Source: a virus
Taxonomy: Duplodnaviria > Heunggongvirae > Uroviricota > Caudoviricetes
IMG/VR virus record: IMGVR_UViG_2778261163_000009
DNA length: 40,609 nt
Strand: one strand, 5' to 3'
Position numbers and translations under genes: made by a program. The notes under the pieces were generated by a model. The model was not told where the DNA came from and did no database searches. It saw only the letters and a program-made list of their open reading frames with translations. Positions 8,656-40,609 of this stretch are shown here, piece by piece. Each line of letters begins with the position of its first letter. Position 1 is the first letter of the stretch.

Positions 8656-9225
8656 TCAGGGGGATTCATTGCTCTTATTTGCCGGAAATTTTCTATAAAT
8701 GGTAGAAACGCCTACATCAAAAATCAGTGCAATACGCTGTCTTGATTCTCCGGCCTCGAGTAAACGCCCAATCTGTGCCCACTGTTTGGTGGTCAACTTA
8801 GGACGGCGTCCACCTACTCTGCCTTTGGCACGAGCTGCAGCCAGCCCTGCCCTAGTACGTTCAACTATCAGTTCGCGTTCCATTTCAGCCAGGGCCCCCA
8901 TGACATGAAAAAAGAAACGGCCCATTGGGGTGCTGGTATCAATACTGTCAGTCAGGCTTCGGAAATTCACGCCACGCTGACGCAACTCTTCTATCAGCGT
9001 AACAAGATGCCGCATACTGCGCCCCAACCTGTCTAGCTTCCAGACAACCAGCGTGTCTCCTGCCGATAGTGTCCTGAGCAGTTTTTTCAGCCCCGGTCTG
9101 TCGGACTTAGTGCCACTGATTTTATCCTCAAAAATCCGCTCACATCCCGCGCAGTTCAGTGCATTACGTTGCAAATCGGTGTTCTGGTCATTTGTTGACA
9201 CGCGTACATAGCCAATAAGTATGAT
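8656..9225 (-). CDS. Gin/Pin/Hin-family serine DNA invertase; canonical start codon position is ATA
   Basis: Translation reads (I)LIGYVRVSTNDQNTDLQRNAL... and runs collinear with Pin/Gin through the C-terminal helix-turn-helix; the ORF track begins at GTG 9201, but homology continues 8 codons upstream to an ATA preceded by an AGGGGG ribosome-binding site. Confidence 0.8.
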   Translation of the reverse strand: MILIGYVRVSTNDQNTDLQRNALNCAGCERIFEDKISGTKSDRPGLKKLLRTLSAGDTLVVWKLDRLGRSMRHLVTLIEELRQRGVNFRSLTDSIDTSTPMGRFFFHVMGALAEMERELIVERTRAGLAAARAKGRVGGRRPKLTTKQWAQIGRLLEAGESRQRIALIFDVGVSTIYRKFPANKSNESP

Positions 9226-9249
9226 TATCCCCCTGAATAAAAACCGGGG

Positions 9250-9771
9250 ATGATGCCAGTTAGCTGTTACCTCTGCATTTTCTTAAACGTTGGTTTGGGA
9301 GAAGGCTCTGCATTACCTGTTGGTGTGCCTGTTCCATGGCCTTCAGCCACACCGCCAACAGGCTGGCTGAAATGCAACGGTGCGGCTTTTTCTGCTGAAG
9401 AATACCCGGAACTGGCAAAGGCTTATCCGACAAATAAATTGCCTGATTTACGTGGTGAGTTTATTCGTGGCTGGGATGACGGGCGCGGTATTGATGCAGG
9501 ACGTGTTTTATTGAGCATTCAGACAGGGATGCTGGAAAAGCACCGTCATCCTGTTGTCGCCAACGATGGGTATGACTCAAAAGAGGTATGGGAACTGGCG
9601 GCGATCTTCAGAAGAGCATATACACAGGGCAAGGGACTGGATGGTACCAGTGCAGGCGGAACTTTGATTCCATCACCAACGCTACATACACGAGGGAGTG
9701 TCGGTAATACTGGCGGGAGTGAAACCCGTCCACGAAATATTGCATTTAACTTTATCGTGAGGGCTGCATAA
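9250..9771 (+). CDS. Alternative tail-fibre C-terminal segment (silent copy, tail-collar-like)
   Basis: Encodes GLGEGS at the crossover site, then PVGVPVPWPSATPPTGWLKCNGAAF typical of tail-fibre receptor-binding tips; opposite strand to H. Confidence 0.7.
   Translation: MMPVSCYLCIFLNVGLGEGSALPVGVPVPWPSATPPTGWLKCNGAAFSAEEYPELAKAYPTNKLPDLRGEFIRGWDDGRGIDAGRVLLSIQTGMLEKHRHPVVANDGYDSKEVWELAAIFRRAYTQGKGLDGTSAGGTLIPSPTLHTRGSVGNTGGSETRPRNIAFNFIVRAA
9278..9303. repeat. Invertase crossover site (hix/gix-like 26 bp), left end of invertible segment
   Basis: TTTTCTTAAACG TT GGTTTGGGAGAA; the right half-site is the reverse complement of the left half-site of 11144..11169. Confidence 0.7.
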
Positions 9772-10379
9772 TGGATAACGCCGTATTAAATAGCGAGCTT
9801 ATTGCCACGAAGGCGGGGAATATTACAGTCTATAACTATGATGGTAAAACTCGGGAATATATTTCTACTTCAAATGAATATCTTGCCATTGGTGTCGGTA
9901 TCCCTGCATATTCCTGTCTGGATGAACCTGGTATACATAAGGCGGGTTATGCTATCTGCCGTTCGATGGATTTAAACTCATGGGAATATGTGCCAGACCA
10001 TCGCGGTGAAATCGTCTATAACACCGAAACGGGAGACGCCAAAGAAATCACAGCTCCGGGTGATTATCCTGAAAATACAACCACTATCGCCCCGTTAACG
10101 CCATTCGATAAATGGGATGGTAAGAAATGGGTGACCGATACTGAGGCACATCATAGCGCCGCAGTAGACGCGGCAGAAGCACAGCGTCAGTCACTGATTG
10201 ATACTGCAATGGCTTCCATCAGTCTGATTCAACTGAAATTGCAGGCCGGGCGGAAGCTGACGCAGGCAGAAACCACCCGACTTAACGCTGTGCTGGATTA
10301 CATTGACGCGGTGACGGCAACAGATACCAGCACCGCGCCGGATGTTATCTGGCCTGAACTGCCGGAGACTGCACAATAA
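9771..10379 (+). CDS. Tail fibre assembly chaperone for the alternative fibre tip
   Basis: 202 aa, start overlaps the preceding stop; a hairpin CCCTGCTG-TGTGT-CAGCAGGG follows at 10401..10424. Confidence 0.7.
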   Translation: MDNAVLNSELIATKAGNITVYNYDGKTREYISTSNEYLAIGVGIPAYSCLDEPGIHKAGYAICRSMDLNSWEYVPDHRGEIVYNTETGDAKEITAPGDYPENTTTIAPLTPFDKWDGKKWVTDTEAHHSAAVDAAEAQRQSLIDTAMASISLIQLKLQAGRKLTQAETTRLNAVLDYIDAVTATDTSTAPDVIWPELPETAQ

Positions 10380-10515
10380 ACTCACCATCAATATATAAAT
10401 CCCCCTGCTGTGTGTCAGCAGGGCATTCTTTCCATATTAATGATGGATGGAATCTTCCTTCAGGATTAATTTCCGTTATCTCTTCTACTTTATTTTCTTC
10501 AATTCTTGCCCACAT
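10345..10515 (-). CDS. Small ORF downstream of H (possible short tail-fibre assembly fragment)
   Basis: 57 codons, GGTGAGG ribosome-binding site 6 nt before ATG; overlaps the 3' end of the opposing assembly gene by 35 nt. Confidence 0.35.
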   Translation of the reverse strand: MWARIEENKVEEITEINPEGRFHPSLIWKECPADTQQGDLYIDGEFIVQSPAVQAR

Positions 10516-10522
10516 ATGAACC

Positions 10523-12205
10523 TCACCAGTAAATATAAACTGCGCCATCTGCTCCGGCACCCGACTGACCCGTTGATGAATTAGGACATAATCCAGCACC
10601 GCCACCTCCAGGCCCAACTGCTGATACCGCTTTTCCGTTAGCTGTATCTCTGAATGAACCTGCTCCTCCGGGGCCACCACCAGAACCACCATTACCAGCT
10701 CCCGATGCGGCAGAAGCAATGGAACCTGGAGAACCTGGCCCAAGCGATGTATTAATTGTTCCCCCGACACCAACTGCGCCTAACCCTCCGGAAGGCTGGC
10801 CTCCGCTATAGCCTCCGGAAGCTGACATGTAAGTCCCGAAACTGCTCGAGCCACCATTTTTACCGTTTACAGAAATACCAGACACAGGCGCACCACCGGC
10901 ACCAACCGTAATCGAAACACTGTTTATACCAGTTAAATCTACCAGCCCCTCAGCAACTCCGCCCCCACCACCTCCTCCGCCACATGTAACGGCTGAAGCG
11001 GTTGTTGAACCTATCCCTCCTGACGCACCGCCACCAATAACTTTGACGTAACATTTTCTTCCTTTGCGCAACTCTTCAGGAACAGTCCAGCTTGTTACTC
11101 CAGCCGTTGTGAAGGCAACCAGATTTCTGAACCCAAATGAACCTTCTCCCAAACCAAGGTATGTGAGAAGACCAGCTACATCCTTTCCACTCAAATTAGT
11201 CAGCGTATTGTCCAGCGGTTGTTTACCTGCCAGCGCATTAAGCATTGTCGTGGCAAAGTTCGGATCATTCCCCAGTGCCGCCGCCAGTTCGTTCAGTGTA
11301 TCCAGTGCCGCAGGTGCAGAACCCACCATTCCTGCAATCGCCGATTTCACAAAAGCCGTAGTGGCAATCTGTGTATTATTGACCGACTGCGCCGCCGTAG
11401 GGGCTGTTGGCGTTCCGGTGAGTGCCGGACTCGACAGCGGCGCTTTCAGTGCCAGCGCATTGTTAATGGTGGTACTGAATTTCGGATCATTGTTAATGGC
11501 TACGGCTATTTCTTTCAGCGTGTCCAGCGTGGCTGGCGCACCATTAATAAGAGCCGTCAGTGCCGCCTGAACAAATGCGGTGGTCGCAAGCTGCGTGGTA
11601 TTATTCCCCGCCGCTGGCGTTGGCGCTTTGGGGGTTCCGGTAAACGTTGGACTTTCTTTGGGTGCATACTGTGAATGCGGGTCCGGCGCGGCAAGATGTT
11701 TTGCCATCAGGTCATCCACGTACACCTTCAGCTCCAGAGCCTTGTCATCCACATACTTGCGGGTTGCCAGCACTACAGCAGGGTCGATTTTCAGGGTGAT
11801 ATTGTCCGTGCTGCTGGTAATCAGCACCATGCGCACGGTCTGGGTACGCCCGCTGCCTTCAGCCAGTTGCGGCTTATAGCTTTCCGGGCAGTTGCCCACG
11901 GCAATCAATGTCCCGGACTCATCAAACAGGCCCACTTCACGTATCCACCAACCGCCCTCGTTTTCAGGGATCACCTGTTCGGCAATAATCTGGCTGCTGT
12001 TCTGCGGGTCGATATAGAGCATATTCAGCGCAGCCCGGCGTTTCTCATTTACCAATGCTGTCTGCTTTGCGTCCGGCGTTGGCAATGTTCCGCCGCCATC
12101 GCCGACCGCCATATGGGTAATTTTTAAAGGCACACCGAGCGCGGCGGCGCTGGCAAGTTTCGCCGCGCCAATATCCGTCAGCAGGGTATAAAATTTTGTG
12201 CTCAT
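10523..12205 (-). CDS. H: Tail fibre protein H (constant N-terminus plus invertible glycine-rich C-terminal tip)
   Basis: 560 aa, P2 gpH-like N-terminus; crossover site encodes LTYLGLGEG about residue 345; C-terminal 200 aa is Gly-rich. Confidence 0.85.
   Translation of the reverse strand: MSTKFYTLLTDIGAAKLASAAALGVPLKITHMAVGDGGGTLPTPDAKQTALVNEKRRAALNMLYIDPQNSSQIIAEQVIPENEGGWWIREVGLFDESGTLIAVGNCPESYKPQLAEGSGRTQTVRMVLITSSTDNITLKIDPAVVLATRKYVDDKALELKVYVDDLMAKHLAAPDPHSQYAPKESPTFTGTPKAPTPAAGNNTTQLATTAFVQAALTALINGAPATLDTLKEIAVAINNDPKFSTTINNALALKAPLSSPALTGTPTAPTAAQSVNNTQIATTAFVKSAIAGMVGSAPAALDTLNELAAALGNDPNFATTMLNALAGKQPLDNTLTNLSGKDVAGLLTYLGLGEGSFGFRNLVAFTTAGVTSWTVPEELRKGRKCYVKVIGGGASGGIGSTTASAVTCGGGGGGGGVAEGLVDLTGINSVSITVGAGGAPVSGISVNGKNGGSSSFGTYMSASGGYSGGQPSGGLGAVGVGGTINTSLGPGSPGSIASAASGAGNGGSGGGPGGAGSFRDTANGKAVSAVGPGGGGAGLCPNSSTGQSGAGADGAVYIYW
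11144..11169. repeat. Invertase crossover site (hix/gix-like 26 bp) inside H, right end of invertible segment
   Basis: TTCTCCCAAACC AA GGTATGTGAGAA; left half-site TTCTCCCAAACC is the reverse complement of the right half-site of 9278..9303; resembles hixL TTCTTGAAAACCAAGGTTTTTGATAA. Confidence 0.7.
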
Positions 12206-23456: not shown

Positions 23457-24155
23457 TTATTTGTTTCTTCTTTGTTCACGCCTTGTCTTGGCTTCGATAA
23501 GGCGTTGAGGTTCAGTGTAAAGCCGTTCTAAAAAAAGATAGGTAAAATCTTCAAGATCCTCAGCAGCAGCTTTATCCAAAATACCTTCATGCGCTCCATC
23601 ATTTCCGTCATCTTTAACGCATTCAGCTAGTTCCCTTAAAGCTTCAGGCAGTAGATGATTATCAAATAACCACTCCATTCTTAACCCTAGGCTTCTCCTT
23701 ATTTTTTGCGCAGGCCCTTGCTCCCCATCAGGAAGAAGTCCTTTTGTGGCATAATCAAGGCAAAGCCTAAACATGGTTGCTGCTGCATTATAACAACCTA
23801 TAGCCAAACATTTCGCCCCTTCCTCATATGCACTATTGATATGCTCAGGTAAGAACTCTGGTGGCTCCTCTACTGCTAAGTCTGCCGGTGATATAGGTCT
23901 AACAACCTCTGCAACTTCCTTTAAGCCGAATATTCCACTTTCCCAATTATAGTCATCTAAAGTTTTATTTTTCGTTAAAGGTCTGCAAAGAAAAATTGTC
24001 GTTTTATGACACTCTCGGCAAACACAATAGACCTCGTACTCGTATGTTTTACCCCCGCCCAATGCATTGTAAACCCTAGTGCAATTCAGCCCATTAACAT
24101 CAAACGCTATTTTTTGTGATCCACATCGTGGACAGTCATCCACTAACATAACCAT
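23457..24155 (-). CDS. Hypothetical zinc-ribbon protein (cargo between Q and cos)
   Basis: 232 aa, GGGAGGAG ribosome-binding site; N-terminal CPRCG...CVCRECH cysteine cluster; C-terminal acidic/His region (DDGNDGAHEG); AT-rich; no P2 counterpart at this position. Confidence 0.6.
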   Translation of the reverse strand: MVMLVDDCPRCGSQKIAFDVNGLNCTRVYNALGGGKTYEYEVYCVCRECHKTTIFLCRPLTKNKTLDDYNWESGIFGLKEVAEVVRPISPADLAVEEPPEFLPEHINSAYEEGAKCLAIGCYNAAATMFRLCLDYATKGLLPDGEQGPAQKIRRSLGLRMEWLFDNHLLPEALRELAECVKDDGNDGAHEGILDKAAAEDLEDFTYLFLERLYTEPQRLIEAKTRREQRRNK

Positions 24156-31533: not shown

Positions 31534-32166
31534 ATGATACAGGTAAAGGCTGGAGAGAATACAGGGGGAAGAGAGGCTATCCATAGACTAATGGCAGCCT
31601 ATGATTTCAAGTCCAGACAGCAACTTTGCGATCACTTAGGCGCATCAAAAAGCACCATGGCAAACAGATACTTAAGAGATAGTTTTCCTGCAGAGTGGGT
31701 GATTCAGTGCGCCTTGGAAACAGGAGTTTCTTTACTGTGGCTAACCACCGGACAGGGAGAGCCAGGTCCAAACATTAAACCTAAAAAAAATATCAATTCC
31801 GTGAACTCCAGCAAGGTTGTACCTCTTTCTGAACTAGTATCTCCTGAAATTGACAAGGCGACTCTCAACGGTGGTTTATTGGTCGATGCTGGAAAAGCAA
31901 TCATTGATAGCAGCATACTCCCCTCAGACTCAAGCAACCTACTGCTGGTGACTACTTCTGGTGATTCTTATTTAATAGATCGCAACCAAACACCACCAGT
32001 AAATGGTATGTGGTTAGTCGATATCGACGGGATAAAAAGCATTGTTAAATTGACTCGGCTCCCGGGAAACAAATTAGTAGTGCATCAGGATGATTCATCG
32101 TTTGAGTGCGGTCTGGATGACATTGAGGTAGTAGGCCGCGCACTGAAAATCATTAAGAGCCTTTGA
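31534..32166 (+). CDS. cI: Immunity repressor CI (186-type)
   Basis: 210 aa; N-terminal helix-turn-helix and C-terminal region resemble 186 CI (..CALETG..L.WL.TG.GE... LPG.KL.V). Confidence 0.8.
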   Translation: MIQVKAGENTGGREAIHRLMAAYDFKSRQQLCDHLGASKSTMANRYLRDSFPAEWVIQCALETGVSLLWLTTGQGEPGPNIKPKKNINSVNSSKVVPLSELVSPEIDKATLNGGLLVDAGKAIIDSSILPSDSSNLLLVTTSGDSYLIDRNQTPPVNGMWLVDIDGIKSIVKLTRLPGNKLVVHQDDSSFECGLDDIEVVGRALKIIKSL

Positions 32167-32167
32167 T

Positions 32168-33181
32168 ATGACCATCAGAAAACAGCCGAACGGAAAATGG
32201 TTGTGTGAGTGCTATCCCAATGGACGCAATGGCAAGCGCGTGCGTAAGCAATTTGCTACGAAAGGCGAAGCCATTGCGTTTGAAAGCTTCACAATGGAAG
32301 AAGTGAATAAAAAACCGTGGTTGGGTGAAAAGGATGATCGGCGACGCCTATCAGAATTAATTGAGCTTTGGTATTCCCTGTATGGTCAAACACTCGCAGA
32401 CCCCAAGCGCCTCATGGCGAAACTTAGAATTATCTGTAATGGTCTAGGCGATCCCATCGCCTCAGAACTGACAGCTGGTGACTTTACAAAATACCGCGAA
32501 GCACGGTTAAAAGGTGAAATACGAAATGAAGATGGCACACTTATGTCGCCCGTAAAGCCCCGTACGGTAAACCTTGAACAGCGCAATCTATCATCTGTGT
32601 TCGGTACATTAAAAAAACTAGGACACTGGTCAGCACCAAACCCGCTGGCAGGACTTCCGACCTTCAAAATTGCCGAAGGTGAGCTGGCTTTTCTTTCCAC
32701 GGACGAAATCAAGCGCCTGTTGGCGGCATGTGCTGAATCTCAAAACCCTAGCTTACTAATGATTGCAAAAATATGCCTAGCTACTGGCGCACGGTGGAGT
32801 GAAGCCGAAAATCTGCAGGGCCACCAAATATCGAAATACCGAATTACTTATACAAAAACAAAAGGCAAGAAAAACAGAACAGTACCCATATCACAGGAGC
32901 TGTATGACGAACTCCCAAAGAACAGAGGGAAGTTATTCTCACCATGTAGAAAAGCCTTTGAACGAGCAGTAAAACGGGCAGGTATAGATCTACCGGATGG
33001 CCAATGCACCCACGTGCTGCGACATACGTTTGCTAGCCACTTTATGATGAATGGCGGGAACATACTTGTGCTAAGGGATATTTTGGGACATTCGGATATC
33101 AAGATGACCATGGTTTACTCACATTTCTCACCAGATCATCTTGAAGATGCCGTTACTAAGAACCCATTAAACTTGATATAA
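32168..33181 (+). CDS. int: Tyrosine integrase (P2/186 type)
   Basis: 337 aa; C-terminal catalytic region HVLRHTFAS...LGHSDIKMTMVYSHF with the R-H-R-Y tetrad; directly follows cI. Confidence 0.9.
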   Translation: MTIRKQPNGKWLCECYPNGRNGKRVRKQFATKGEAIAFESFTMEEVNKKPWLGEKDDRRRLSELIELWYSLYGQTLADPKRLMAKLRIICNGLGDPIASELTAGDFTKYREARLKGEIRNEDGTLMSPVKPRTVNLEQRNLSSVFGTLKKLGHWSAPNPLAGLPTFKIAEGELAFLSTDEIKRLLAACAESQNPSLLMIAKICLATGARWSEAENLQGHQISKYRITYTKTKGKKNRTVPISQELYDELPKNRGKLFSPCRKAFERAVKRAGIDLPDGQCTHVLRHTFASHFMMNGGNILVLRDILGHSDIKMTMVYSHFSPDHLEDAVTKNPLNLI

Positions 33182-33194
33182 AACAGCCAAAATT

Positions 33195-34952
33195 CTATTT
33201 CATCAAGTAATCCAATTCATCCTTCATAGGTATAACTTGCTCATAAAGTCTATGGTAGGATTTTCCAATTGCCCCCCTAAATTGAATAAGTTTAGGGGAA
33301 AAGCTACCGATATTAATAATATGTTCTTGCGCTATACCAGGATATGGATCGATAAAAATAATCTCTGTCATACCTAACTGATAAGCTTTTTTAGCACAAA
33401 GTTCACAAGGGCTAGCTGTAGTATATAGTTTCCCTCCATTAATACCGACCCCACCATATTTGGCCAATTGCAAAAAAGCATTCTCCTCTGCGTGCAATGC
33501 ACGGGTATGCACTTGATTCCCTTTCTTTTCATCATCAAGGCTGTTGTGAATATCTTTAAAACAATATGGCAAATTAAGTCCTTTAAAAACAGTAGAACTT
33601 GAATCACTCGCCCTTATTTTTATTAAATTTTCTTTAACTTTACTCCTAAATTTTGTATTACTTCGTTCGTACAGGCTATATGTTCCCTCATCAAAATCAT
33701 GCAATAACCCATCAAATGACCTCATAGAACAAGGAACTTGACCTTTTGCTACATCGTTCCAACCAACTGACTTGATAGAGTTATCATTATCTGTCACAAC
33801 CGCCCCTACTTGCCTAGATATACATCCAGAATTTAGTTTTACAGTATATGCAACTTGCATAACCCTTTCCATGGCGGTAGGAGATATTAATCCAGGGTGT
33901 TGCATTAATGATACATACCACGCAATTTGTGCTTTGAGAAAGTTATTATTATCAAATTCTTTTTTAGGGTTAAAAAAATGTATATCTGAAATTTCAATGC
34001 ATTTTTTTACATTAGGATTAGTAAGATGATTATACTCGCCATCTCCTTTACCAGATTCTTCATCATTAATTTTTTTTATCTGTTCCTCTGAGAACTTATG
34101 TAATTTCTTTAAATATCTGGTTCGATGTTCATCTGGTGCATTTATAGAAACCAGATGGAATGCAGCATATCTATCTTTGAAGAATTTAGCTTCATACGGG
34201 TTACGTATCGCATCAATGACTATATACGCTTTATTATTCTTTACTTTTCTAATTATTTTAATAACACGATTAATTGTTTCAGGTAAATGAAAAACAGCCT
34301 TTGGAATAAAGTCTTGATTTTCATAATCTACATCAACCTTCCCTATTCTTCTAATTGACTTTCCTGCTGACTGATATAGCTCAATATATAAACCTGGCTC
34401 TAGTTCATTTAATTCCCTTTTAAAATCCCGTGTAAATTTTCGAGTAAGAGTTAATATCCTAATAAAGGTATCTTTCCCCCTGCCTTTAAAGTCAATCTCA
34501 TCATCATGATTAAGAAGATTTTTTATCACCTTAAGATATTTTATCTTCAACAAACTTTTAGCGAACACACCATTAACAACCAGTTTCTTAGCTGCCTTAA
34601 AGGAAATCGAATTTTCTTTTTTATCGGGGATTTTACTTGCAGAAAACTGAATGAATTTAGCTAAGGCCGATGGAGATAAAAGGAGCAAATATATTGAAAT
34701 GAGATCACTGACCTTTATCGAATAGAAGTTCTTCCAATGAGTCTCTGCAAAATTTTTTACTATTTCATAACGCCGCAAATCCAATCCTTTATAATACTCA
34801 GCCAAGACGTTACTATCTGGAAAAGATATTTCTTTTTGTTCTAAAATATTTGCTGCAGTAGTACATCCTGAGCCAGTTCTCCCAGTTAAACCAATAAGAA
34901 TAAATTGACTATTTTCTAAAAAAAGCTCACTAATAAATTTGTGTTCTCTCAT
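33195..34952 (-). CDS. P-loop NTPase/kinase-like plus zinc-dependent cytidine/deoxycytidylate deaminase fusion (AvcD / dCTP-deaminase-like defence protein)
   Basis: 585 aa; N-terminal Walker-A-like ILIGLTGRTGSGCTT; C-terminal deaminase signature HTRALHAEENA ... ASPCELCAKK (H-A-E and P-C-x-x-C zinc ligands); AT-rich; sits between int and attR. Confidence 0.6.
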   Translation of the reverse strand: MREHKFISELFLENSQFILIGLTGRTGSGCTTAANILEQKEISFPDSNVLAEYYKGLDLRRYEIVKNFAETHWKNFYSIKVSDLISIYLLLLSPSALAKFIQFSASKIPDKKENSISFKAAKKLVVNGVFAKSLLKIKYLKVIKNLLNHDDEIDFKGRGKDTFIRILTLTRKFTRDFKRELNELEPGLYIELYQSAGKSIRRIGKVDVDYENQDFIPKAVFHLPETINRVIKIIRKVKNNKAYIVIDAIRNPYEAKFFKDRYAAFHLVSINAPDEHRTRYLKKLHKFSEEQIKKINDEESGKGDGEYNHLTNPNVKKCIEISDIHFFNPKKEFDNNNFLKAQIAWYVSLMQHPGLISPTAMERVMQVAYTVKLNSGCISRQVGAVVTDNDNSIKSVGWNDVAKGQVPCSMRSFDGLLHDFDEGTYSLYERSNTKFRSKVKENLIKIRASDSSSTVFKGLNLPYCFKDIHNSLDDEKKGNQVHTRALHAEENAFLQLAKYGGVGINGGKLYTTASPCELCAKKAYQLGMTEIIFIDPYPGIAQEHIINIGSFSPKLIQFRGAIGKSYHRLYEQVIPMKDELDYLMK

Positions 34953-35287: not shown

Positions 35288-35384
35288 ACGTCTATTGTCG
35301 TCCAGTGAGAATTGCTGAGAACTACGAGTTATGGCACCCTGAATGGGACCCACTAAGAAGGGTCCAAAAACCGAGGGTCCCAAA

Positions 35385-36614
35385 ATGGCAAAAATCGCTA
35401 AGAAGCTCACTGACACTGAAATCAAAAGCACCAAGCCAGCCGATAAAGAAATCAACTTGTTTGACGGTGATGGTCTGATTCTACGAATCGCTCCTTTGGC
35501 GAAAGGAGGCAAGAAAAATTGGTATTTCAGGTATGCAGTACCAGTGAGCAAGAAAAGAACCAAAATGAGCCTTGGGACATATCCTCACCTTACCCTTGCA
35601 AGAGCCAGAGCCTTACGTGATGAATATCTCTCCTTTCTGGCAAATGGTGTTGATCCCCAAATCCATAACAACGATAAGGCGAAGGCATTAAAGAGTGCTA
35701 CTGAGCACACTCTCCAAGCCGTAGCGCGGAAATGGTTAGATGAGAAGGTAAAGACATCAGGTATCTCACAAGACCATGCAGCAGACATCTGGCGCAGCTT
35801 AGAGAGAAATGTCTTTCCCGGTCTGGGTAATGTCCCTATCAATGAGATCCGACCTAAGCTCTTAAAACAACACCTTGATCCTATTGAGCAACGAGGCGTA
35901 TTGGAAACTCTACGCCGTATCATTTCACGTCTGAATGAAATCTTCCGGTGGGCAGCTACTGAAGAACTTATTGAGTTCAACCCGGCTGACAACCTTGGTC
36001 AAAGATTCAGTAAACCAAAAAAGCAAAATATGCCTGCCCTTCCCCCAAGCGAATTGCCAAGGTTTATGGAATCTTTGACGAATGCGTCAATCCGGTTGGA
36101 AACACGTATGCTAATTGAATGGCAATTGTTGACATGGGTTCGTCCGGGTGAAGCCGTTCGCGCAAGGTGGTCTGATATTGATACAACCAACAGCATTTGG
36201 AACATTCCTGCTGATTTCATGAAAATGAAAAAGCTTCACAAAGTTCCTTTGAGTAAAGAAGCTTTGCGCATCCTTGAATTAATGAAATCAATAAGTGGGC
36301 ATAGAGAATGGGTTTTCCCCAGCATAAAAGCGCCTCTTAATCATATGCATGAACAAACAGCCAACGCAGCTATCATCCGAATGGGGTTCGGAGGCGAGCT
36401 TGTAGCTCACGGTATGCGTTCTATTGCACGAACAGCGGCAGAGGAGTCTGGTAAATTCAGAGCTGAAGTTCTTGAGGCAGCGCTTGCCCACTCGAAAAAA
36501 GATGAAATTATCGCAGCATACAATCGTGCAGAATATCTGATAGAGCGACAGAGTTTGATGCAATGGTGGAGTGATTACGTTCAAGCTCAAAGATCAAATG
36601 CTCTGGTAGCCTAA
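35385..36614 (+). CDS. P4-family tyrosine integrase (IntA/CP4-57-like)
   Basis: From MAKIAKKLTDTEIKSTKP...DGDGL.LRI... which resembles E. coli IntA; C-terminal catalytic region with HGMRS and AYNRAEY; the ORF track starts 14 codons earlier. Confidence 0.8.
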   Translation: MAKIAKKLTDTEIKSTKPADKEINLFDGDGLILRIAPLAKGGKKNWYFRYAVPVSKKRTKMSLGTYPHLTLARARALRDEYLSFLANGVDPQIHNNDKAKALKSATEHTLQAVARKWLDEKVKTSGISQDHAADIWRSLERNVFPGLGNVPINEIRPKLLKQHLDPIEQRGVLETLRRIISRLNEIFRWAATEELIEFNPADNLGQRFSKPKKQNMPALPPSELPRFMESLTNASIRLETRMLIEWQLLTWVRPGEAVRARWSDIDTTNSIWNIPADFMKMKKLHKVPLSKEALRILELMKSISGHREWVFPSIKAPLNHMHEQTANAAIIRMGFGGELVAHGMRSIARTAAEESGKFRAEVLEAALAHSKKDEIIAAYNRAEYLIERQSLMQWWSDYVQAQRSNALVA

Positions 36615-37140: not shown

Positions 37141-38907
37141 TTATGGTAGCATCATTGATACATAATCCACACCAATCCTTGAGCTATACTGAGACGCTAT
37201 AGCCTGATATCTTTCTGCATAACCAGTTCTCAGTTGAGATTTAAGTTTGAGTCGGACAGGAACATTTTGCACGTTGCCATCCATATTACTTAAAAACACG
37301 GCAGAAATAATATTTTTTTCTTCGCCATCAACTGTTGTTCCATGATTCAACACCACCATATAATCAACAACAGGAAGCGTTTTATCCCCTTCGAAAATAG
37401 AGAGATATTTTCTTTGATTTTTATGCATTACATATATATATTTCGAATGTTCAGCAAATGGCAATGCTTTACTCTGACTGGCGTTAAAAAGCTCCAGAAC
37501 TTTAATGAGCCTGTGCGGACTTAATCTTACATGGTGAGGGTCGTTACCCTGAGTAGGAACCAAATCACATGCCGCAGATACACATAAATACCATTTGTTC
37601 GACTCTGTATCAAAGAAAATAGTGCCAGTAGAAATATGACCATCTTCAAAATTCTTTGAAGACAAATTCATATTTAAAGCATGATACATTTCGTGATAAG
37701 TATCATTATTTGATGGCAGATCCATTTTTGAAGAGCAATATTGGAGCAATGCAGCAACTCCGCTGTTAGCGTATTCATTTGAATAGCTATCAAAAACACT
37801 TTTGATAAATTCATCCAGCGTATTATTATTTTTAAGTCTTTGATAAAGCTCTTCTGATAAATTACCAAATACAAAGTCAATATTTCTACATCTAATATCA
37901 GGCGAGTCTGATTTTAATATCTCATTTAACCACGCAGCTTGACCGTAATGATCGTTAGCCAAATGATTTACAAAAGATAAAGCCTCAGCTTCGATTGCAT
38001 TCTGAATTTCAGATTTTATTAACTGATAATAAGATGGTTTCCATTCAATGAGAGAATCATTGAGAGTTTGCCAAATCCTATCTCCATCGTTTTCATGATC
38101 ATCTTGAACCTTATGAAATAGGGAGACAAAGATATTACCACATTGAATCCATTTTACTCCGCTTTCATCACCCCGAATGACATTGCCAGATGTGTTGCTA
38201 GAAATAATTGCATTTCTAGACACAGCATATTCTGCAATCATTTTTGCAATGAAGTTTTTATCCTTTTGATCCTCCAACACAGCATCATCATGTATTAATC
38301 TTTTAATTCTTCTACAAGGCTTACTGTCTTTAATATAGGCTATTGTTTCATCTCTTGTGAGAGCTTTATTACCATTATCATTTAAGTTCGGTAATACAAC
38401 GTCTTCCCAATAACTTTGGACATCTTCATTATCGTAGTCAATGATCAAGCTGTTGATATCCAGAGCACCTTTGAGAGTCGATGATATCTGCATCCAAACC
38501 GTTTCTAAATTCTCTCTAGTATATATTACAATCATATTTAAATGATCGGAGTCTTTCAAATCTTGTAATAGTTTAAGTGTTTTATCAGGTGCATTATTAT
38601 CAAGATGATAATCTACAATAATAAGATCTGATTTTCTAATCCGATCCACATCGAAATTAACAGAACCATTGTCAACATCACAAATCATATTTTTAGATTG
38701 AAAAAAGCTCTCAAGAGTAGCGGCTCGTTTAGATGAGTCAATTTTGTTGTAGTCTAAATCAACTTCGTTATTCAACGCCCTGATTGATTCAGAATACGTC
38801 AGAAAATCGTCATCAATCATGACAACGGAACGAATTGCATTTTCGCAGAAAGTTTTCTGGACAAGAGAATTATAATTTGCCACTGTCATATTAGAACTCC
38901 ACTCCAT
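37141..38907 (-). CDS. Response-regulator receiver domain protein with a large uncharacterised C-terminal output domain
   Basis: 588 aa; N-terminal receiver-like motifs VVMIDDD (acidic pocket), DLIIVDYHL (phospho-acceptor Asp), MIVIYT (Thr); about 430 aa of unassigned C-terminal sequence; start overlaps the upstream kinase gene by 17 nt. Confidence 0.55.
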   Translation of the reverse strand: MEWSSNMTVANYNSLVQKTFCENAIRSVVMIDDDFLTYSESIRALNNEVDLDYNKIDSSKRAATLESFFQSKNMICDVDNGSVNFDVDRIRKSDLIIVDYHLDNNAPDKTLKLLQDLKDSDHLNMIVIYTRENLETVWMQISSTLKGALDINSLIIDYDNEDVQSYWEDVVLPNLNDNGNKALTRDETIAYIKDSKPCRRIKRLIHDDAVLEDQKDKNFIAKMIAEYAVSRNAIISSNTSGNVIRGDESGVKWIQCGNIFVSLFHKVQDDHENDGDRIWQTLNDSLIEWKPSYYQLIKSEIQNAIEAEALSFVNHLANDHYGQAAWLNEILKSDSPDIRCRNIDFVFGNLSEELYQRLKNNNTLDEFIKSVFDSYSNEYANSGVAALLQYCSSKMDLPSNNDTYHEMYHALNMNLSSKNFEDGHISTGTIFFDTESNKWYLCVSAACDLVPTQGNDPHHVRLSPHRLIKVLELFNASQSKALPFAEHSKYIYVMHKNQRKYLSIFEGDKTLPVVDYMVVLNHGTTVDGEEKNIISAVFLSNMDGNVQNVPVRLKLKSQLRTGYAERYQAIASQYSSRIGVDYVSMMLP

Positions 38908-40609
38908 TGAACTGGATCACAAAATTAGCGCCATCTTTTATTAAATAGTTATCGCCTTCATCAGGTTCTGAATACCATATTTTATGATGTGCAACAGCAA
39001 GGTTTTCTCGACATAGATACAGACCTACCCCATGTCCATTTGCTCTTTTGCTATAAAATAGTTCAAATAGTCGCGGGATATCATCGGTATCAATTGCCGG
39101 ACCAGAATTTGCTATGATAACCAAAGAATTCACAAAACCAATCTTTATGAGCCTATTATTTGACAGACTGACCCAATACATTGCATTGTTGATAATATTA
39201 GTAAAAACAGGATAGATCCTTGATGGTATATCTGTTATTGCGATTTGCTTAAACTCTTCACTAAATTCAATAGTTATTCGTTGCCGTTCGAAACGCTCCC
39301 CAAAGAACTTCAGGACATAATCCATGATATTTTTTCCAGTTATTCTCTGCCTGGATTGATAACCTGATATTTTCAAAGGTGATAAGAAACGTATTTGTTG
39401 AGTAAGCGATCTGTGAGCATTTAACGCCAATGAAAAACCAGGGTGTTCTTTTACAGAAGTAGGAAGAGAGTTTAGTCCTCTGGTTACCATAGAATCCATT
39501 TCTTCAAGTTCATGAGATATTATCTCAACACTAATACCTAACTGTGCAAGCGCGTTTAAACTTTTAGCTTTTTCTTCAAAATATGAGCGTTCTTCTTCAG
39601 ATAATGAGAATGCTGAATCTAAGTTTATACCTTCAAATAATCTATCGAGACCTTTTATTATTGATTGATATTTGAAAGTTAGGGTATCAACTGACTCAAC
39701 ATATAAACTATCGAGCAAATTAAACACATTTTCAATTTGTGAATCATTATCTATTGAATCAACAACTGATATAGTTTTAGCATAATAATCACTTCGATCA
39801 ACCTTTATTTCATCGGCCCATTTTTTTAAAAGAGAATGTATCTTCTCCTCTATCGTGTTATTAAACTTAGTTAGTTTAGAATTAATAATACCTTGATTTT
39901 TTTCAAGGTGATTTTTCGCTGACAATGAAGGCTCAAGTTTATTTAATTCAGAATCAAGTTTATTAATTGCTAACTTCATTTGTAGAATATACGCAGAGAA
40001 CTCATTAAATTTATCTCTGTAGTCTCTATATTTCTCTTCATACATTCCAAGTTTTGGAGGTTTGATAGGCGTTTTAATTTCACTGCGCAACGCATCTAAG
40101 TTTGTAAGATCACTGTCTATAATTTTAAGATAGTTTAAATCTAACGAACCATCAGTTTTATCAAGCTTAGTTTTCAGCCTTTTAACAGCCTCCAAGGAAG
40201 CATCAAGAACTGGTGTCTGATTCTTCAAAGCTTCTGAAAAACTTTTTTGTGTTGATTTTCGAGCTTGTTGTTGAGCAGATTTTCTTAACTCTTTTTCACG
40301 CTTAACTTGTTCTAAAAGCTCTTTACGGTCATCAGAACGTGAACCAAAAAATCTATCAGCAAGTTCAGTTAACAAATTAGATATAATAGTTTTCAGTTCT
40401 CTTGCAGCCTGGTTTCTTATGAATCCCTCTCTCCCCGACTTATCTTTCAGCTCTTTATTACTGGATTGAGTAATTCCAATATAACCAAAAATCCTTCTAT
40501 TAGACCAATAATATCGCCCTGCATTCCATGAACGTCTTTCTTCTATCTGGAAGAAATCATTATCTACTCGACCATAAGGTAATACTCTCAAGCTATCCCT
40601 AAAAATCAT
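38891..40609 (-). CDS. Histidine kinase (HisKA + HATPase_c), probably N-terminally truncated by the window edge
   Basis: H-box EIISHELEEMD; ATP-binding N box FTNIINNAMYW, G1 NSGPAID, G2 GHGVGL; long coiled-coil region upstream; ORF runs to the last base of the window. Confidence 0.65.
   Translation of the reverse strand: MIFRDSLRVLPYGRVDNDFFQIEERRSWNAGRYYWSNRRIFGYIGITQSSNKELKDKSGREGFIRNQAARELKTIISNLLTELADRFFGSRSDDRKELLEQVKREKELRKSAQQQARKSTQKSFSEALKNQTPVLDASLEAVKRLKTKLDKTDGSLDLNYLKIIDSDLTNLDALRSEIKTPIKPPKLGMYEEKYRDYRDKFNEFSAYILQMKLAINKLDSELNKLEPSLSAKNHLEKNQGIINSKLTKFNNTIEEKIHSLLKKWADEIKVDRSDYYAKTISVVDSIDNDSQIENVFNLLDSLYVESVDTLTFKYQSIIKGLDRLFEGINLDSAFSLSEEERSYFEEKAKSLNALAQLGISVEIISHELEEMDSMVTRGLNSLPTSVKEHPGFSLALNAHRSLTQQIRFLSPLKISGYQSRQRITGKNIMDYVLKFFGERFERQRITIEFSEEFKQIAITDIPSRIYPVFTNIINNAMYWVSLSNNRLIKIGFVNSLVIIANSGPAIDTDDIPRLFELFYSKRANGHGVGLYLCRENLAVAHHKIWYSEPDEGDNYLIKDGANFVIQFNGVEF

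Follow-up and report, generated by a model that had tools for sequence, protein, structure and literature searches.

What decides which of two alternative tips a P2-like tail fibre displays, and what assists the assembly of each tip? These questions are raised by the tail-fibre region of a 40,609-nucleotide (nt) stretch of DNA assigned to a caudoviral genome (IMG/VR record IMGVR_UViG_2778261163_000009; hereafter the window). From the letters and open reading frames (ORFs) alone, the initial annotation had proposed that a segment bounded by hix/gix-like sites inverts within this region, so that the fibre gene H would end either in a glycine-rich tip or in a tail-collar-type tip. We consider it highly probable that the region is a Din-family (Gin/Cin/Pin/Hin/Fin-type) inversion switch in the fibre operon of a P2-family prophage lying next to ssrA, and that it carries a mini-chaperone-like helper behind the glycine-rich tip.

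The invertible segment and its natural variants

A repeat search recovered 9278-9308 / 11139-11169 as the longest inverted repeat of the region (31 nt, 81% complementary), and this repeat contains two 26-base-pair (bp) sites (Table 1) in inverted orientation, with a 12-2-12 layout and a matching central dinucleotide (TT / AA); written as 12+2+12, the right site in reverse complement reads TTCTCACATACC-TT-GGTTTGGGAGAA. Common to both is an exact 16-nt core, TTGGTTTGGGAGAAGG, which occurs exactly twice in the whole window, once on each strand, whereas at up to three mismatches only 0.47 chance matches would be expected there. Measured against a Din-type site consensus, TTNTCNNAAACCNNGGTTTNNGANAA, both sites agree at 17 of the 18 specified positions, and the Mu sites gixL and gixR at 16. 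The fibre frame reads G-L-G-E-G-S through each site. In its present orientation the region encodes an H protein of 560 amino acids (aa) with a glycine-rich C-terminus, while inversion in silico yields one of 509 aa ending in the collar tip, the two variants having residues 1-354 in common. Hence the main elements of the initial annotation, namely the paired sites with their coordinates and shared peptide, and the exchange of a glycine-rich for a collar-type H, are all borne out, and the concern that the site match might be coincidental is met by the two-copy core and the consensus scores. A third crossover site of the kind that allows multiple inversions in one prophage of E2348/69 was also considered; there is no further site-like sequence in or near the fibre region.

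Near-identical copies of the region in other E. coli strains are informative in this regard. When the window is inverted in silico at the central dinucleotide, it matches strain CEA212U over 100% of 3,651 nt; over 9,651 nt the inverted window shows 3 mismatches to CEA212U, as against 1,353 for the un-inverted window. The H gene of CEA212U is annotated with a length of 1,530 nt and has the collar-tip end. Likewise, a comparison of 6,633 nt between two sister isolates of one horse strain, SWYHX138.33gt and SWYHX138.261ft, shows no difference apart from an exact reverse-complementation of the segment. As a single-nucleotide polymorphism (SNP) in the inner half-site of this pair moves with the segment, the exchange can be confined to 8 nt, TTGGTTTG, which include the central dinucleotide. 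In a survey of 5,426 complete E. coli genomes the cassette pair was present at a coverage of at least 80% in only 11, with seven genomes having the orientation of the window and four the opposite one; E. coli genomes that match the region have a median of two matching places each. Taken together, the comparison of these natural copies indicates that the segment inverts in nature, both predicted orientations being represented in strains other than that of the source culture. For P2-like E. coli prophages, an experimental demonstration of inversion comes from the sequencing of clonal cultures (PMC4272514).

The gene adjoining the left site encodes a Din-family serine invertase with Resolvase (Pfam, 1.4e-48) and HTH_7 (2.8e-15) domains and a match to PHROG 125 'DNA invertase' (9e-100). 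It is identical to Mu Gin at 138 of 193 positions (72%) and retains the catalytic-serine motif YVRVSTNDQ (LIGYVRVSTNDQ). We found its start to be anomalous: at 9214-9231 (minus strand) the window reads GATAATCATA where the relatives read GATGATCATG, G-to-A changes having turned into ATA both the ATG of the conserved start and a second in-frame ATG that lies two codons further upstream, while six related loci have ATG. This non-canonical start, which escaped the initial annotation, is a departure from the textbook Din switch, and because of it the expression of the invertase may be very low, or flipping may depend on another invertase in the cell.

In one related locus, that of E. coli ET734 (L003; NZ_CP100922.1, 1286-2518), the segment is present with a different invertase allele of 561 nt, and an additional gene for a 140-aa hypothetical protein lies between the invertase and the left crossover site.

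Table 1. Positions of the fibre-region features in the window, with the strand where one applies and the support for each assignment
Feature	Position	Strand	Support
Serine DNA invertase of the Din family (188 codons; ATA in place of ATG at the conserved start position)	8656..9222	-	Pfam, PHROG and Mu Gin alignment
Left 26-bp crossover site, TTTTCTTAAACG-TT-GGTTTGGGAGAA	9278..9303		Inverted-repeat and site scans; inversion boundary of natural variants falls here
Invertible segment, 1,868 bp between the central dinucleotides	9290..11157		Inverting precisely this stretch in silico gives the E. coli CEA212U sequence (3 mismatches in 9,651 nt)
Silent tail-collar C-terminus (H residues ~350-509 after inversion)	9292..9771	+	Pfam Collar 1.3e-15; PHROG 523
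Tail-fibre assembly chaperone for the collar tip, 202 aa	9771..10379	+	Pfam Caudo_TAP (PF02413) 7.6e-33; PHROG 105 'tail fiber assembly' 8e-98
Companion gene of the glycine-rich tip, 56 aa, candidate domain-only mini-chaperone	10345..10515	-	Conservation, selection and predicted fold
Hairpin with 8-bp stem inside the small ORF, terminator-like on both strands	10403..10423		Kept in relatives
Expressed tip, predicted TNF-like and glycine-rich receptor-binding domain (H residues ~350-560)	10523..11157	-	PF21722
Right 26-bp crossover site, TTCTCCCAAACC-AA-GGTATGTGAGAA	11144..11169		Inverted-repeat and site scans
Constant part of H, residues 1-345	11170..12205	-	N-terminal domain Phage_tail_fib (Pfam, 2.4e-65); located after genes resembling P2 I and J

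Two unrelated tips and a small companion gene

The last ~210 residues of the 560-aa H match the Pfam family Gly_rich_2 (PF21722) at 40.4 bits against a cut-off of 24.3, spanning positions 1-225 of the 226 in the profile. A profile built from 61 homologues of this tip recovers the fibre protein gp24 of the cyanophage Pam3 (1.3e-10), and the best structural match of the modelled tip is chain A of the Pam3 complex 7ypx, followed by two tail-tip proteins of Bxb1 and the glycine-rich domains of ALK receptors. The Pam3 fibre combines a TNF-like domain with a stacked glycine-rich lattice, the distal loops of which are the proposed receptor binders (PMC9608196), and the model of our tip presents the same TNF-like beta-sandwich and stacked lattice. 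In Klebsiella phages a Pam3-type fibre recognises lipopolysaccharide (LPS), and host-adaptive mutations fall in its glycine-rich domain (PMC12671077). By analogy, LPS is probably the receptor class of the glycine-rich tip as well. A search of the PDB with full-length H returned shaft-repeat matches only; matches to single-chain variable fragments (scFv) in the PDB profile search were dismissed as noise arising from their Gly-Ser linkers, and a literature search on PF21722 gave no results.

The silent tip is of an altogether different kind. It belongs to the Collar family (PF07484; 'tail collar fiber protein' of PHROG 523 at 1e-74), and its PDB sequence matches comprise the short tail fibre 9cuy (6e-17), the T4 gp37 tip 2xgf (7e-16) and T4 gp12. 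The Caudo_TAP chaperone gene follows directly, its ATG overlapping the stop codon of the collar tip, and the two together form a conventional cassette. The contrast drawn in the initial annotation between a glycine-rich tip and a collar-type tip with its own 202-aa chaperone is therefore upheld by the family assignments, and both tips match known fibre proteins (Pam3 gp24 on the one hand and T4 gp37/gp12 on the other).

What follows the glycine-rich tip had been described as a 57-codon ORF overlapping the opposing chaperone gene and containing a hairpin, the need of the tip for a chaperone being left open. All these elements are present: the last 12 codons of the ORF overlap the chaperone gene, and the hairpin is the GC-rich core of an extended palindrome (window 10385-10445, z = -4.8). 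The conserved end of H, TGG TGA GG, forms a Shine-Dalgarno sequence 5 nt before the ATG of the small gene. In relatives, the Prokaryotic Genome Annotation Pipeline (PGAP) calls a 67-aa version that reaches 10548, annotated as a hypothetical protein. At four other loci (L005, L006, L008 and L009), which have tips 54-60% identical to that of the window, an ORF of 53-56 codons begins 5-10 nt downstream of the tip; in a further locus (L011), with a tip about 98% identical, the DNA contains the small ORF although gene calling passed it over. L006, L008 and L009, which include loci without the opposing chaperone gene and without the hairpin, all retain the length of 53-56 aa, and the loci with a companion ORF encompass P2-like, Mu-like and Pam3/E217-like baseplate contexts. 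The hairpin itself is kept in L005 and L009, is present in L008, where one stem pair has changed on both sides from T-A to C-G, and is absent from L006; it may serve as a shared terminator of the two convergent cassettes.

In alignment, the small proteins show 36-80% identity, and across 42 sequences there are 10 invariant residues, including W2, R4, E12, T14, R21, H23, L26, W28 and C31. Non-synonymous divergence amounts to 0.09-0.34 per site, compared with 0.61-0.91 for synonymous divergence (ratio of non-synonymous to synonymous change, pN/pS, about 0.1-0.5). Since non-synonymous change is thus low relative to synonymous sites that are saturated, we conclude that the gene is under purifying selection. 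A profile search recovered 53 clusters at 90% identity, mostly of 50-70 aa, from Enterobacterales and one Pseudomonas phage, with zero family assignments; an exhaustive search extended this to 752 representative-level relatives, many of which are 100-215 aa long and match at the N-terminus, the additional length being a C-terminal extension; the domain stands at the head of hundreds of such longer proteins. For instance, a 135-aa ORF behind a glycine-rich fibre of Achromobacter matches as an N-domain with an hhalign probability of 99.5%. One apparent relative, P0160 (376 aa), to which the small-gene profile matched ten times, was rejected as a gene-calling artefact: it is a translated repeat array with the recurring sequence FQSLIWVACPTG. 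We found no sequence matches for the small protein in Pfam, PHROG, NCBIfam or the PDB. On the basis of these comparisons the small ORF is a real, conserved companion gene.

The AlphaFold model of the small protein has five strands and no helix, with 47 of its 56 residues at a predicted local distance difference test score (pLDDT) of >=90. Its best structural match is chain a of 7ypx, the very complex to which the tip, through chain A, also matches best, and the second-best is U of Mu (5yvq). The tip and the small protein therefore map to two chains of one solved fibre-chaperone complex. In the chaperone of that complex, Pam3 gp25, an N-terminal beta-sandwich binds at the point where the TNF-like part meets the glycine-rich one and a C-terminal helical domain trimerises (PMC9608196). 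Going by the models, the 56-aa protein looks like the fibre-binding N-domain of such gp25-type chaperones; as it ends at residue 56 and has five strands and no helix, we treat it as a domain-only variant and not as a full member of the gp25/Tfa group. We infer that it is a dedicated assembly helper of the glycine-rich tip. The chaperone question is to that extent largely answered, in that a conserved, helper-like gene follows the tip, with a presumptive chaperone role.

A proposed mechanism and its alternatives

These results suggest the following scheme. The serine invertase (8656-9222) would pair the inverted 26-bp sites, cut at the central TT/AA and rotate the 1.87-kb segment; with the sites lying in the fibre frame, the constant 345 residues of H would become joined to one of the two receptor-binding tips, and the late promoter would have only the joined tip and its helper gene downstream of it. 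As the segment now lies, H carries the Pam3 gp24-type TNF-like and glycine-rich tip, probably LPS-binding, followed by the 56-aa protein. The latter is pictured as a stand-alone version of the beta-sandwich N-domain of gp25-type chaperones, devoid of the C-terminal trimerising helices, which would protect the folding glycine-rich tip, trimerisation being supplied by the long shaft of H. In the other orientation, H would acquire the T4 gp37/gp12-like collar tip together with the conventional Caudo_TAP chaperone. The flipping itself would presumably be carried out by the window's own ATA-start invertase. If the scheme holds for the small protein, it would stand for a minimal class of single-domain tail-fibre helpers, in which the client-binding beta-sandwich acts alone and trimerisation is left to the P2 H shaft; we advance this tentatively, as a possibility that is still doubtful. 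Such a domain-only mini-chaperone is modestly novel.

Several points weigh against this scheme. On the side of the enzyme, the invertase lacks an ATG or GTG at its conserved start, and a motif scan did not demonstrate a Fis enhancer in its 5' part: the first 240 nt are 67% identical to gin and have one Fis-like 15-mer at a common position (centre 78), with no clear second site at the expected spacing, the motif being too degenerate for a decision either way. On the side of the helper, a terminator-like hairpin lies within the coding sequence of the small gene, and the 56-aa protein is without the helical domain by means of which Pam3 gp25 trimerises its client (PMC9608196). The fold assignments of both tip and helper, moreover, come from AlphaFold models and not from solved structures of these proteins.

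A possible consequence of the anomalous start would be a frozen or host-dependent switch, in which the invertase is not made and the segment either stays in the glycine-rich state or flips only through a Din invertase acting in trans. We hold this to be somewhat unlikely, though several observations would favour it: both in-frame starts are ATA, where six relatives have ATG, and initiation at the earliest canonical codon, GTG at Val8, would cost the catalytic domain its first beta-strand; matching E. coli genomes have a median of two matching places; and Din invertases are known to substitute for each other, as Fin does for Hin (cited in PMC4272514). Moreover, there is a relative in which the state does seem fixed. 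A related tip occurs in only 2 of 50,697 phage records, and in one of them, the Yersinia phage vB_YpM_MLG42 (L016; PP599993.1, 2838-3762), it lies in silent orientation right beside the sheath gene; having no annotated invertase gene and a single detectable crossover site, this phage appears to be frozen in the collar-tip state (a literature search on it gave no results). Against such freezing in the window stands CEA212U, which has the identical ATA codons and only 3 SNPs in 9.65 kb and yet the opposite orientation, so that inversion probably took place later than the change of the start codon; either some initiation at ATA, at a low level, or a different Din invertase of the cell could have been responsible. 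In CEA212U the complete 188-aa protein is still called by PGAP, and since Mu gin itself starts at GTG, weak starts seem normal in these invertases. By contrast, we regard it as extremely improbable that the inverted repeat simply reflects sequence common to the fibre cassettes and that the segment inverts by general homologous recombination. Some similarity is indeed expected of two arms that encode one peptide, but the identity is limited to about 16 nt, too short for efficient recombination by RecA, and is organised in Din-type half-sites; further, a Gin homologue lies adjacent, and in the natural variants the exchange is localised to 8 nt surrounding the central dinucleotide.

For the small gene, one could suppose that the ORF arose by chance or is left over from a truncated chaperone, that its sequence persists solely as a bidirectional terminator between the convergent cassettes and that the glycine-rich tip folds unaided. 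The overlap with the opposing chaperone gene, the absence of family and PDB sequence matches and the hairpin inside the ORF, terminator-like on both strands and with a stem pair altered on both sides in L008, would all sit comfortably with this supposition. It is nevertheless largely refuted, and in our estimate very unlikely, in the face of the selection on the protein sequence, the constant length even in loci without the opposing gene or the hairpin, the 752 relatives, the Shine-Dalgarno sequence provided by the end of H and a confident model that matches specifically a fibre chaperone. It is also conceivable that the 56-aa protein is a permanent accessory of the fibre tip, staying bound in the manner of TfaMu or T2 gp38 and modulating or contributing to receptor binding. 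The retention of the client-binding domain alone would be in keeping with this, as would the structural match to Mu U, which was solved in complex with the Mu fibre; however, the Pam3 structure shows the distal receptor-binding loops covered by the chaperone, the departure of which before maturation has been argued to be necessary (PMC9608196). We rate a permanent accessory as unlikely, and retain the assembly-helper interpretation for what follows.

Prophage setting, cassette exchange and known systems

The fibre region is part of the late tail operon of a P2-family E. coli prophage. Homologues of V, W, J and I (14629 down to 12202, minus strand) precede the 560-codon H gene (12205-10523), and the sheath, tube and tape-measure genes lie further on along the same strand (8513-3255). 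As the gene for the transfer-messenger RNA (tmRNA; ssrA) is found at 40-402, at the left end of the window, and the CI (31534-32166) and integrase (32168-33181) genes together occupy 31534-33181, the prophage adjoins ssrA. The Salmonella P2-family phages Fels-2 and SopEphi also have ssrA as their integration site. Between H and FI/sheath, P2 has G, a terminator and fun(Z); here this place is taken by the invertible segment and the invertase gene, in agreement with the earlier proposal that the switch stands in for G and the fun(Z) slot.

Several neighbouring genes are of interest in their own right. Directly beyond the prophage integrase, 33195-34952 (minus strand) encodes a 585-aa protein with a cytidine/dCMP deaminase domain, which matches the dCTP-deaminase defence model of PADLOC (2e-146). 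Beyond it come another integrase gene (35343-36614) and a pair of large genes (37141-40609), of which one has a Response_reg_2 domain; this arrangement suggests a second island at the ssrA site. Inside the prophage, 23457-24155 (minus strand) encodes a 232-aa DUF4145 protein with a weak PADLOC match (9e-07) to PD-T7-4, a candidate defence family; it is possibly a cargo or defence gene.

The glycine-rich tip and its helper are not tied to this fibre. We observed at least three further constant regions to which they are joined, in every case at an L-G-L-G/R-E-G-S junction: a putatively e14 StfP-like N-terminus behind a Mu-type baseplate, a 'MAKNDFKAF...' type behind a Pam3-like baseplate and a shorter P2-like fibre. 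Din-type sites are present at these tip junctions. The exchange of fibre modules at Din crossover sites has long been known, and the modular pattern seen here fits it. The tip and small gene would seem to form a compact cassette that travels between P2-like, Mu-like and Pam3-like baseplates, shuffled by Din sites.

The Pam3-type glycine-rich module, earlier work on which concerned a cyanophage and lytic Klebsiella phages, circulates in E. coli prophages as a plug-in cassette under phase-variable control. With a tip of ~210 residues, a helper of 56 and a fixed G-L-G-E-G-S junction, the cassette could serve the engineering of fibres, tailocins and host range, and with the helper one could readily test if a fibre chaperone can do with its client-binding domain alone. 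The unannotated family of small proteins could moreover be given a name in annotation pipelines.

In comparison with known systems, the switch is of a kind already thoroughly known: it is a further Din-family host-range inversion switch in a P2-like prophage. The initial annotation was sound on sites, tips and position, and the kind of switch that it described had been known, including from P2-like E. coli prophages (PMC4272514). What goes beyond the textbook is the placing of a Pam3-type glycine-rich tip opposite a collar tip, a putative domain-only helper of an unannotated family and the non-canonical start of the invertase. As in the G segment of Mu with Gin, the C segment of P1 with Cin and the P segment of e14 with Pin, the invertase (72% identical to Gin) adjoins its segment, and 26-bp imperfectly symmetric inverted sites inside the fibre gene join a constant N-terminus to one of two tips borne on cassettes that converge towards the middle of the segment. 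The Mu segment is, however, 3 kb long, compared with 1.87 kb here, and its central dinucleotide is TC/GA instead of TT/AA; Mu has two homologous S/U pairs, whereas the two cassettes of the window are of unrelated types, and the host phage is of the P2 family and not Mu or P1. The invertible fibres of P2-like phages (Fels-2/SopEphi with Fin; the E. coli E2348/69 prophages, PMC4272514) are closer, agreeing in phage family, in the position between H and sheath and in the type of enzyme, but most relatives have a second Caudo_TAP-type cassette where the window has the glycine-rich tip and mini-gene. Relative to Pam3 gp24/gp25 (PDB 7YPX / 7YFW; PMC9608196), the tip domain is set on the long shaft of P2 H and not on a stalk that is short and helical, the helper has 56 aa in place of 162 aa and lacks the C-terminal trimerising helical domain, and the cassette is under inversion control. 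Finally, the Pam3-type fibre TFP_Y of the Klebsiella phage SCNJ1-Y (PMC12671077) resembles that of the window in having an enterobacterial host and a glycine-rich receptor-binding domain, while such Klebsiella fibres belong to lytic phages and, unlike the fibre described here, are not part of a switch.

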